Part shown: positions 6,863 through 8,973 of the stretch, piece by piece
Numbering within the stretch: position 1 is the first letter of the stretch
Layout: each line of letters starts with the position of its first letter
Origin: Planctomycetota bacterium
GTDB lineage: Bacteria; Planctomycetota; UBA8742; JACQVU01; JANLHZ01
Direction of reading: 5' to 3'
NCBI GenBank assembly: GCA_024653775.1
Contig: JANLHZ010000268.1
Span: 3,555 to 67,554 of the forward strand
DNA length: 64,000 nucleotides
The notes under the pieces: generated by a model
Told to the model about the DNA's origin: nothing
The model's database searches: none
Seen by the model: only the letters and a program-made list of their open reading frames with translations
Program-made: the position numbers and the translations under genes

Positions 6863-8095
6863 ATGGCATTAATTGAAGGAATTCGCGTCCAGAACTTTCG
6901 CGCACTTAAGGACATTACGATCGGCAGGCTTTCAAACCTTCAAAACCGTGAAGCACTCACTCCGTTCACTGTAGTGATAGGCAAAAATGGTTCAGGCAAG
7001 AGTACGCTATTTGACGCTTTTGGATTCATTTCCGACTGCCTTAACTCTGGAGTTGAAAACGCTTGCGATTCCAAGCAGAGAGGGGGCTATGATCGCCTGC
7101 GAACTATGGAAACGACCGATCCAATAGGATTCGAGATTTATTATCGGGAAGGACCGCAGGACCGCCCGATCACGTATGAATTATGGATTTCACTGGATAA
7201 GTCGGGGCGTCCTTTTGTCGAATCCGAGATACTGAAACAACGAAGAAAGGGTCAAAAACACGGACGCCCGTATCCGTTCCTTCGGCTTAATAAAGGAATA
7301 GGGAAAGTGTGGAAAGGAGAAGAGGCGCTTGAAGCCGATAACACTACGGAAGACGCAGCGAGTGAGTCGGTGGAACTCACGGATTTGCGTCAATTAGGCA
7401 TTGCAACTTTAGGAACGCTCAAGGAACATCCTCGTATTAAGAGATTTCGGGATTTTCTCAAAGGATGGTATTTGTCTTACTTCTACCCGGATGCCGCTCG
7501 GAGTTTGCCTACGGCGGGTCCGCAGAGACATCTTAATATGCACGGAGATAATATCGGTAACGTCGTGCAGTTCATGGAACGAGAGCACAAGAGTCGGTTC
7601 GAAGGTATTCTCAAAAATATTGCATTGCGAATTCCCGGGATAAAAAAGATAGACACTCATGAAACAGAGGATAAAAGAGTATTGCTTCGTTTCAACGACG
7701 GCGCTTTTAATGATCCTTTTTATGCCCAGCAAATGTCCGACGGCACGCTCAAGTTATTTGCGTATATGCTTTTGATGGAAGATCCTAATCCACCGCCGTT
7801 TATATGTATTGAAGAACCGGAGAATGGGCTTTACCATAAATTACTCGATTCGATAGCGAAGGAATTTCGCTCTCACGCTACAGGGGCCCGAAACACACCT
7901 CAAATATTTGTGACAACTCACCAGCCGTATTTTGTAGACGCTCTGGAACCAAAGGAGGTTTGGATATTGGAAAAACAAGATGATGGGTGTTCCAAAATAA
8001 TGCGTGCAAGCGACATTTCACTTGTGAAAAACCTTGCCGATGAAGGTCTCCCACTTGGCGGACTGTGGTATAGCGATTATATGGACGCGAGGTGA
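6863..8095 (+). CDS. ABC-type AAA family ATPase (AAA_21/AAA_15-like, OLD/AriA/AbiLi-like)
   Basis: Walker A GKNGSGKST. ABC signature-like QQMSDGTLK. Walker B/D-loop FICIEEPENGLY. Sits in a visibly lower-GC stretch than the flanks. Confidence 0.8.
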   Translation: MALIEGIRVQNFRALKDITIGRLSNLQNREALTPFTVVIGKNGSGKSTLFDAFGFISDCLNSGVENACDSKQRGGYDRLRTMETTDPIGFEIYYREGPQDRPITYELWISLDKSGRPFVESEILKQRRKGQKHGRPYPFLRLNKGIGKVWKGEEALEADNTTEDAASESVELTDLRQLGIATLGTLKEHPRIKRFRDFLKGWYLSYFYPDAARSLPTAGPQRHLNMHGDNIGNVVQFMEREHKSRFEGILKNIALRIPGIKKIDTHETEDKRVLLRFNDGAFNDPFYAQQMSDGTLKLFAYMLLMEDPNPPPFICIEEPENGLYHKLLDSIAKEFRSHATGARNTPQIFVTTHQPYFVDALEPKEVWILEKQDDGCSKIMRASDISLVKNLADEGLPLGGLWYSDYMDAR

Positions 8096-8099
8096 ATCA

Positions 8100-8759
8100 A
8101 TGCACTTCGAGATACTCGTGGAAGATTTATCCGGTAAAAAAGCATTAGATATATTGGTTCATAAAATAGTCGGTGACGAACACACTTATCAGGTGCATTC
8201 CTACAAAGGCGTTGGTCAGATTCCGAAAAATATGCGAGACACGAAAGATGCGAGTAAGCGGATATTGCTTCAAAATCTTCCGAAACTCCTGAAAGGGTAC
8301 GGAGGGACTTTTGATGGTTATCCGAGTGACTATGCCGCGGTGGTGATTCTGGTCTGCGATCTGGACGATAAGTGTCTGAAGAACTTTCGCGCGGAACTGT
8401 TTAGTATCCTCGATAACTGTAATCCAAAACCGGAAACGCGCTTTTGTATAGCGATAGAGGAAGGCGAAGCATGGCTTCTTGGAGACCTGGAAGCAGTAAG
8501 AAAGGCATATCCGAAATCCAAGAATGCTGTTTTGAACGAATATAAAAACGACAGTATCTGTGGTACGTGGGAAAAGCTCGCCGACGCGGTATATCCGGGC
8601 GGCTCAAAAAAGTTGGCAAAAAACGGCTGGCAAGAAGTTGGCAAGGAAAAATCCAAGTGGTCGGAGAGTATTTCGCCGCATATAGATGTGGAGAAGAACA
8701 AATCGCCGAGCTTTCAATATTTCAGAGGCAAAATGCTGGAGCTTGCGGGAGAATATTAA
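8100..8759 (+). CDS. DUF4276-like TOPRIM-fold protein, partner of the upstream ATPase
   Basis: ATG 5 nt after the ATPase stop with a GAGGTG RBS. N-terminal ILVEDLSG and a downstream VCDLDD (DxD) fit a TOPRIM-like E...DxD arrangement. The ORF-track start at 8034 overlaps the ATPase gene and is less likely. Confidence 0.65.
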   Translation: MHFEILVEDLSGKKALDILVHKIVGDEHTYQVHSYKGVGQIPKNMRDTKDASKRILLQNLPKLLKGYGGTFDGYPSDYAAVVILVCDLDDKCLKNFRAELFSILDNCNPKPETRFCIAIEEGEAWLLGDLEAVRKAYPKSKNAVLNEYKNDSICGTWEKLADAVYPGGSKKLAKNGWQEVGKEKSKWSESISPHIDVEKNKSPSFQYFRGKMLELAGEY

Positions 8760-8760
8760 T

Positions 8761-8973
8761 GTGAATTCACGAGAAACCATTGCTCTCCATCCTGAGTTCA
8801 TCTCAAGGAATGGCGAGAAAGAATTCGTCGTTCTTCCTTACGAGGAGTTCGTGGCGTTGCAGGAGTTGCTTGAAGATGCATACGACCTTTTCGACCTGAG
8901 AGAAGCCAAGAAGAAGGAAAAGGACAGTCCCACAATTTCATTCGAGGATGTGAAAAAGGAACTCGGAATCTGA
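8761..8973 (+). CDS. Phd/YefM-like antitoxin-family small protein (no cognate toxin adjacent)
   Basis: ETIALHPEFISRNGEKEFVVLPYEEFVALQELLEDAYDL resembles Phd/YefM antitoxins. GTG start immediately after the DUF4276 gene stop. The ORF-track N-terminal extension overlaps the upstream gene. Confidence 0.5.
   Translation: MNSRETIALHPEFISRNGEKEFVVLPYEEFVALQELLEDAYDLFDLREAKKKEKDSPTISFEDVKKELGI

Follow-up and report, generated by a model that had tools for sequence, protein, structure and literature searches.

Does a short low-GC island in a planctomycete metagenome-assembled genome (MAG) carry a new three-gene defence system, or a known one beside an unrelated gene? The question is raised by three tightly packed genes on the + strand of a 64,000-nt stretch of Planctomycetota contig JANLHZ010000268.1 (positions 3,555 to 67,554; hereafter the window), encoding an ATP-binding cassette (ABC) ATPase, a DUF4276 protein and a small antitoxin-like protein (genes A, B and C; Table 1). 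An earlier note, made from the sequence alone, had described these open reading frames (ORFs) at 6863-8973, where they are indeed present, and had taken the trio for an unnamed system. This last claim does not hold: very probably, a mini-island spanning 6585-8997 was acquired horizontally and inserted between lipA and the gene for a surface protein, forming a single three-gene operon in which a standard copy of the two-gene candidate HEC-01 is followed by an orphan antitoxin that stands outside the HEC-01 system.

Identity of the ATPase-DUF4276 pair

A PADLOC search, as the earlier note had suggested, matches gene A to the model HEC-01A (PDLC04182) over residues 1-409 of 410 (E 1.3e-189, 628 bits) and gene B to HEC-01B (PDLC04205) over residues 1-213 of 219 (E 9.1e-96). 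Both matches are full-length. The pair can be equated with HEC-01 and, as judged from sequence, is an ordinary copy of an already catalogued candidate rather than an unnamed system. HEC-01, the "Hma-embedded candidate 01" of PADLOC-DB v2, was described as an ABC ATPase together with a TOPRIM protein whose metal site is shared with the OLD protein of Burkholderia (Payne et al. 2024, bioRxiv 10.1101/2024.01.29.577857). The locus studied here shares this combination of an ABC ATPase with a TOPRIM protein carrying an OLD-like metal site, as well as the gene order and the 4-nt spacing. It differs in standing alone amid housekeeping genes, outside any Hma- or BREX-like system, in the orphan antitoxin gene downstream, and in an ATPase that is 20 aa shorter than its 430-aa homologues. 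A truncation of the ATPase was nonetheless rejected, since the missing residues correspond to a variable insert that some other subgroups lack too.

The ABC ATPase motifs claimed for gene A (Walker A, Walker B and signature) were all located, together with an H-loop, and are intact and conserved (Table 1); Pfam assigns the protein to AAA_21 (2.7e-41) and to AAA_15, and a sequence search against PDB chains gave no meaningful match. Gene B starts on the same strand 4 nt after the stop codon of A, so that the junction is as tight as had been reported, though not of the 5 nt first given. Its assignment to DUF4276 is confirmed by Pfam (30.7 bits, just over the gathering score of 30.2), a family that has been independently placed in the Toprim superfamily (PMC12065111).

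The acidic residues of HEC-01B are arranged as E8...D87-L-D89, as expected of a TOPRIM-like protein, with E123 in addition. In an alignment of 70 sequences reaching down to 31% identity, invariance is confined to E8, D87, D89, E123, W125 and K184. An AlphaFold2 model built from 70 diverse sequences (predicted local distance difference test score, pLDDT, 94.5; predicted template modelling score 0.90) places E8 after strand 1 and the DxD motif after strand 3, the canonical TOPRIM placement, and thus predicts for B a TOPRIM fold and a metal site like that of OLD; a first model, from 22 near-identical sequences (~70% identity), reached a pLDDT of 51 and was discarded. The closest structural relatives of the modelled fold are the defence nucleases OLD, GajA, retron Ec67 and AriB, the similarity being highest to the OLD family, while Foldseek against the PDB returned no match for the model and a profile search against PDB chains no meaningful one. 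The reading of A and B as a split OLD-type ATPase/TOPRIM pair, proposed in the earlier note, is supported structurally at the level of this model. Unlike the OLD family itself (class 1 P2 Old and Ts OLD, class 2 Bp OLD, and Gabija GajA), in which ATPase and TOPRIM domains are part of one polypeptide, the two are encoded here by separate ORFs, and sequence identity to OLD and GajA is only 12-16%.

Five cysteines of HEC-01B (C86, C92, C107, C116 and C154) are invariant in its close subfamily (~70% identity) and not conserved across the wider DUF4276 family. They may form a subfamily-specific metal or redox site; C86 directly precedes the DxD motif.

The architecture of the pair had also been likened to that of PARIS, AbiLi/AbiLii and RloA/RloB. 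The likeness stands as an analogy and fails as kinship: gene B belongs to none of the families AriB, AbiLii and RloB. In PARIS, the ABC ATPase AriA is paired with AriB, a DUF4435 TOPRIM nuclease whose substrate is tRNA-Lys, whereas B is a DUF4276 protein with neither an AriB match in PADLOC nor a DUF4435 match in Pfam at E <= 0.1; likewise, it matches neither AbiLii in PADLOC nor RloB (PF13707) in Pfam, and within PADLOC it matches HEC-01 models only. A further resemblance is found in the DUF4276 variants of MADS Mad3/Mad4 and Menshen NsnC, which combine a DUF4276 Toprim effector with an AAA_21-type ATPase (PMC12065111). Gene A does match the PADLOC models AriA (1.4e-36 and 1.6e-19), AbiLi (weakly, 1.2e-29) and mad3 (5.6e-21), and together with the common architecture these matches could suggest a divergent PARIS, AbiL, RloA/RloB or MADS Mad3/Mad4 pair rather than HEC-01. 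However, all other PADLOC ATPase models (AriA, AbiLi, mad3 and PDC-M07A) remain at or below 125 bits, at least 480 bits below HEC-01A; the AriA matches, some 500 bits lower, resemble those of generic AAA_21/AAA_15 profiles; the match to the NCBIfam model MAD3 (NF047739) reaches 109.8 bits, far short of the cut-off of 420; and no methyltransferase, mad or nsn genes are adjacent. Such an affiliation is therefore extremely unlikely, and the pair is best regarded as HEC-01.

The distribution of the family is broad. Homologues of B fall into 4473 clusters at 90% identity, the best 120 of which are 68-76% identical to it (besides the 100% self-match) and span many bacterial phyla as well as Methanosarcinaceae, and at least 582 stretches encoding HEC-01B are present in a collection with one genome per species; no HEC-01B relatives were found in IMG/VR. 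The genomic context was analysed in 80 loci (L012-L091), each from another species. An ATPase gene lies directly upstream of B in 79 of them (the exception is cut by a contig end), in most cases at a distance of 4 nt, and gene A is 56-68% identical to these ATPases. With B at 64-74% identity and A in the range just given, from Planctomycetota to Methanosarcinaceae, HEC-01 is unusually uniform for a cargo that crosses phyla and domains.

The antitoxin gene downstream

Gene C starts with GTG 1 nt after the TAA of B and is preceded at 9 nt by a Shine-Dalgarno-like GGGAGA. A 100%-identical protein at NCBI, from a Planctomycetes MAG, has the same GTG start and is named a Phd/YefM family antitoxin. 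Of the profile searches suggested earlier, those for AAA_21/AAA_15 and DUF4276 succeeded, whereas C stays below threshold for Pfam PhdYeFM_antitox (22.2 bits, gathering score 29.8), as it does for DUF6290 (25.0 against 27), NCBIfam phd_fam (17.4 against a cut-off of 20.8) and the NCBIfam RelB models. Homology searches nevertheless place it in a well-populated family: 366 homologues were found, those listed being 58-117 aa long (mostly 64-75) and many named Phd/YefM antitoxin at the source; the closest besides the identical protein is 70% identical. Compared with 18 aligned family members (54-70% identity), seven of which adjoin ParE toxins, C keeps 14 of the 14 family-invariant residues and can be considered intact for that reason.

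What is missing is the toxin. In seven of eight independent contexts of C homologues (L007/8, L009/10, L011, L092, L093, L181 and L174), a ParE_toxin gene lies directly upstream in toxin-first order: six are called genes of 82 aa (one of them called at 56 aa, the frame being longer), and the seventh, in L174, was recovered by tblastn (E 1e-26), having escaped gene calling for want of a canonical start. The eighth context, L180, holds a second orphan copy. C thus resembles the antitoxins of toxin-first ParE/RelE-Phd/YefM modules, to whose family it belongs, and differs from them in lacking its cognate toxin gene and in following HEC-01B, which at full length fills the usual toxin slot. A tblastn search of the whole window with five cognate toxins gave a best E of 0.13 and nothing near 8500-8760, in agreement with the earlier description of C as a Phd/YefM-like antitoxin without a toxin at the stop codon of B.

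Is C then part of HEC-01? A C homologue within 4 kb was found by tblastn in none of the other 80 HEC-01 loci, the C family pairs with ParE in seven of its eight contexts, and nucleotide similarity of the island to other HEC-01 loci stops at the stop codon of B. Because of these three observations, the trio is to be read, on comparative sequence grounds, as a local juxtaposition and not as a conserved three-gene system. The proper label for the locus is HEC-01 plus an orphan ParE-type antitoxin, which has little import beyond annotation.

A contrasting possibility is that A, B and C constitute one functional unit, a tripartite toxin-antitoxin-like defence module in which ParE was swapped for the TOPRIM nuclease and C inhibits or regulates HEC-01B. 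The 1-nt distance and Shine-Dalgarno-like sequence at the B-C junction, the conserved invariant residues, the foreign composition that C shares (GC content at third codon positions, GC3, 0.55 against ~0.78 in the host) and the presence of a hairpin after C and not after B would all fit such a unit, and antitoxin families are known to exchange toxin partners. Yet besides the absence of C from other HEC-01 loci and the end of similarity at the B stop codon, the 25 Pfam families listed for the downstream neighbours of B (74 loci) do not include PhdYeFM, and DUF4276 is upstream of C-family members in none of the eight contexts. Moreover, the HEC-01 pair occurs everywhere without such a partner, which implies that B needs no antitoxin. 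A single functional unit is thus very unlikely. A slim chance, at most, attaches to the co-option of C as an inhibitor, labile safety catch or autoregulator of the TOPRIM nuclease or the ATPase; if true, this would be a natural case of an antitoxin that exchanged its ParE partner for a defence nuclease, and would suggest that HEC-01B is toxic enough to require toxin-antitoxin-like holding.

Most likely, C is instead a surviving co-transcribed orphan left after the loss or replacement of ParE. On this reading, the antitoxin remained without its toxin and is joined to the HEC-01 operon 1 nt past the B stop codon, making this a small, testable case of toxin loss and antitoxin retention beside a defence gene. 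C would be harmless to keep and, speculatively, could neutralise cognate ParE toxins brought in by mobile elements (anti-addiction). No relatives of C were found in IMG/VR.

Elsewhere, the ORFs at the stop codon of B in the other loci inspected are N-termini of Hma-type helicases, junk or, in two Binatia, a VapB-like antitoxin (ribbon-helix-helix/DUF2191-type) within a few nt of the stop (L079:4669-4995 and L082:3980-4294). In L174, the C-family ParE-Phd module (1269-1725) is inserted in a 2-oxoacid dehydrogenase operon, where it separates the E1-alpha gene from the E1-beta gene, and a HicAB pair in turn separates E1-beta from E2; the resemblance of this lipoate-dependent-enzyme setting to the lipA/gcvH neighbourhood here is probably a coincidence.

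Probable acquisition of the island and presumed function of HEC-01

The region 6585-8997 has a GC content of 0.46, the lowest of any 2.4-kb stretch in the window (mean 0.558, standard deviation 0.034), and GC3 is 0.445 in A, 0.486 in B and 0.549 in C compared with 0.70-0.82 in 13 genes of host composition across the window. The composition is therefore clearly distinct from that of the surroundings, and the foreign character of all three genes supports horizontal acquisition, as the earlier note had proposed on both counts. The wider family conforms to this picture: in 52 loci the cassette has a GC content of 0.47 +/- 0.04 and is never more than 0.05 above its flanks, which range from 0.40 to 0.69, and this uniformity whatever the flank fits a frequently transferred unit.

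Within the island, a Shine-Dalgarno-like purine run precedes each start codon by 7-12 nt. The leader presumably holds the promoters; a sigma-70 consensus was sought there without a match, and its DNA is not homologous to that of other HEC-01 loci. The hairpin after C is merely suggestive, the count of terminator-like sites in the region being not above shuffle expectation. Only 24 nt separate the end of the island from the start codon of lipA (8998). Apart from the weak hairpin, this gap leaves no room for a lipA promoter, and lipA may therefore owe its transcription to read-through from the HEC-01/antitoxin operon.

As to function, a mechanism can be proposed by analogy. An oligomer of HEC-01A would bind, hold or license HEC-01B and serve as the sensor of infection; a phage cue would, via ATP binding or hydrolysis, activate or release the nuclease; with its putative E8 / D87-x-D89 / E123 metal site, HEC-01B would then cleave nucleic acid, either DNA or tRNA, so that the phage could no longer replicate, probably with the loss of the infected cell.

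Several points weigh against the overall interpretation of the island as an acquired copy of a defence system followed by an orphan antitoxin. It contains no tRNA, Rfam family or integrase, and its flanks have no att repeats and no direct repeats beyond chance 12-15-mers. A scan of metagenome contigs with lipA found no close relative of the host (best identity 54%), and the insertion is for this reason unconfirmed against an empty site. The tight, Shine-Dalgarno-preceded B-C junction and the complete set of conserved residues in C would also be expected if C had gained a role in the operon. The proposed mechanism is modelled wholly on those of PARIS, Gabija and OLD. Finally, the HEC-01 homologue that Payne et al. 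tested did not protect against BASEL and classic coliphages (10.1101/2024.01.29.577857). Evidence that the family acts against phages thus comes from a single screen, in which one HEC-01 representative, picked at random, is reported to have protected E. coli B from at least one of the phages T4, T5 and T7 (PMC12881386).

The negative coliphage result also bears on whether the A-B pair is immune at all. It might instead do housekeeping work, for example as a nuclease in DNA repair or processing, or be selfish, for example an addiction module of mobile DNA, and lie in defence islands only incidentally. Many of the genes downstream of B in the 74 loci are ordinary metabolic genes, the flanks here (lipA, gcvH, gcvT) are housekeeping genes, and OLD-family and ABC ATPases are known to work in DNA repair too. 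On the other hand, among the same 74 neighbours, which are otherwise heterogeneous, are about 10 ResIII/SNF2 helicases, three PglZ, two DUF1156 and two DUF499 proteins, which belong to Hma/BREX-like operons (e.g., L006); this recurrent nesting (~15-18 of the 74), the patchy cross-domain distribution and foreign GC typical of defence cargo, the kinship of the modelled B fold with defence nucleases, and the protection seen in the screen all argue for an immune role. A non-immune function of the pair is accordingly unlikely, and HEC-01 is retained here as a candidate defence system. The family is strikingly conserved and mobile. A homologue amenable to experiments could help to establish the substrate of a DUF4276 nuclease and the signal sensed by the ATPase, the planctomycete copy offering no special advantage.

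Flanks and other features of the window

The island lies between a divergent gene for a large Golvesin/amidase surface protein on the left and lipA-gcvH-gcvT on the right (Table 1).

Table 1. Coordinates of the island, its sequence motifs and further features in the window
Feature	Position	Strand	Description
Left-flank gene	3192-6584	-	secreted protein, 1130 aa; Golvesin_C + Amidase_3 + fn3, long Thr/Pro-rich repeats
Leader	6585-6862		intergenic, 278 nt, GC 0.49; between the divergent Golvesin/amidase gene and HEC-01A
HEC-01A (A)	6863-8095	+	410 aa, ABC-type (AAA_21/AAA_15) ATPase; PADLOC and Pfam
Walker A of A	6980-7006		GKNGSGKST
Signature-like motif of A	7727-7753		QQMSDGTLK
Walker B of A	7799-7834		FICIEEPE
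H-loop of A	7910-7927		TTHQP
HEC-01B (B)	8100-8759	+	219 aa, ATG start, DUF4276 TOPRIM/OLD-like putative nuclease; PADLOC and Pfam
Putative metal-binding residues of B	8121-8123; 8358-8366; 8466-8468		E8; D87 and D89; E123
Orphan antitoxin (C)	8761-8973	+	70 aa, GTG start, short Phd/YefM-type family
Hairpin	8976-8991	+	weak terminator-like, 6-bp stem then ATTTTG; between antitoxin stop and lipA start
HipA_2 kinase with DUF3037	17087-17908 and 17933-18703		low-GC patch
AbiJ_NTD4 protein	46145-47026		low-GC patch
Second AAA_15/AAA_21 ATPase	48317-49327		336 aa; low-GC patch
AAA_14+DUF4143 ATPase	58299-59591	-	430 aa; low-GC patch

Several other small patches of low GC (under 0.50, in a genome of ~0.60) also carry defence or toxin-antitoxin-type genes, and the contig appears to be peppered with horizontally acquired mini-islands. 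The ATPase at the far end of the window has the length typical of HEC-01A and was considered as a second copy; it was rejected, being an unrelated AAA_14+DUF4143 protein. The lowest GC in the first 20 kb (0.375-0.43 in 400-nt windows) is found at 15400-16000, between the ORFs 13868-15478 and 16011-16883.

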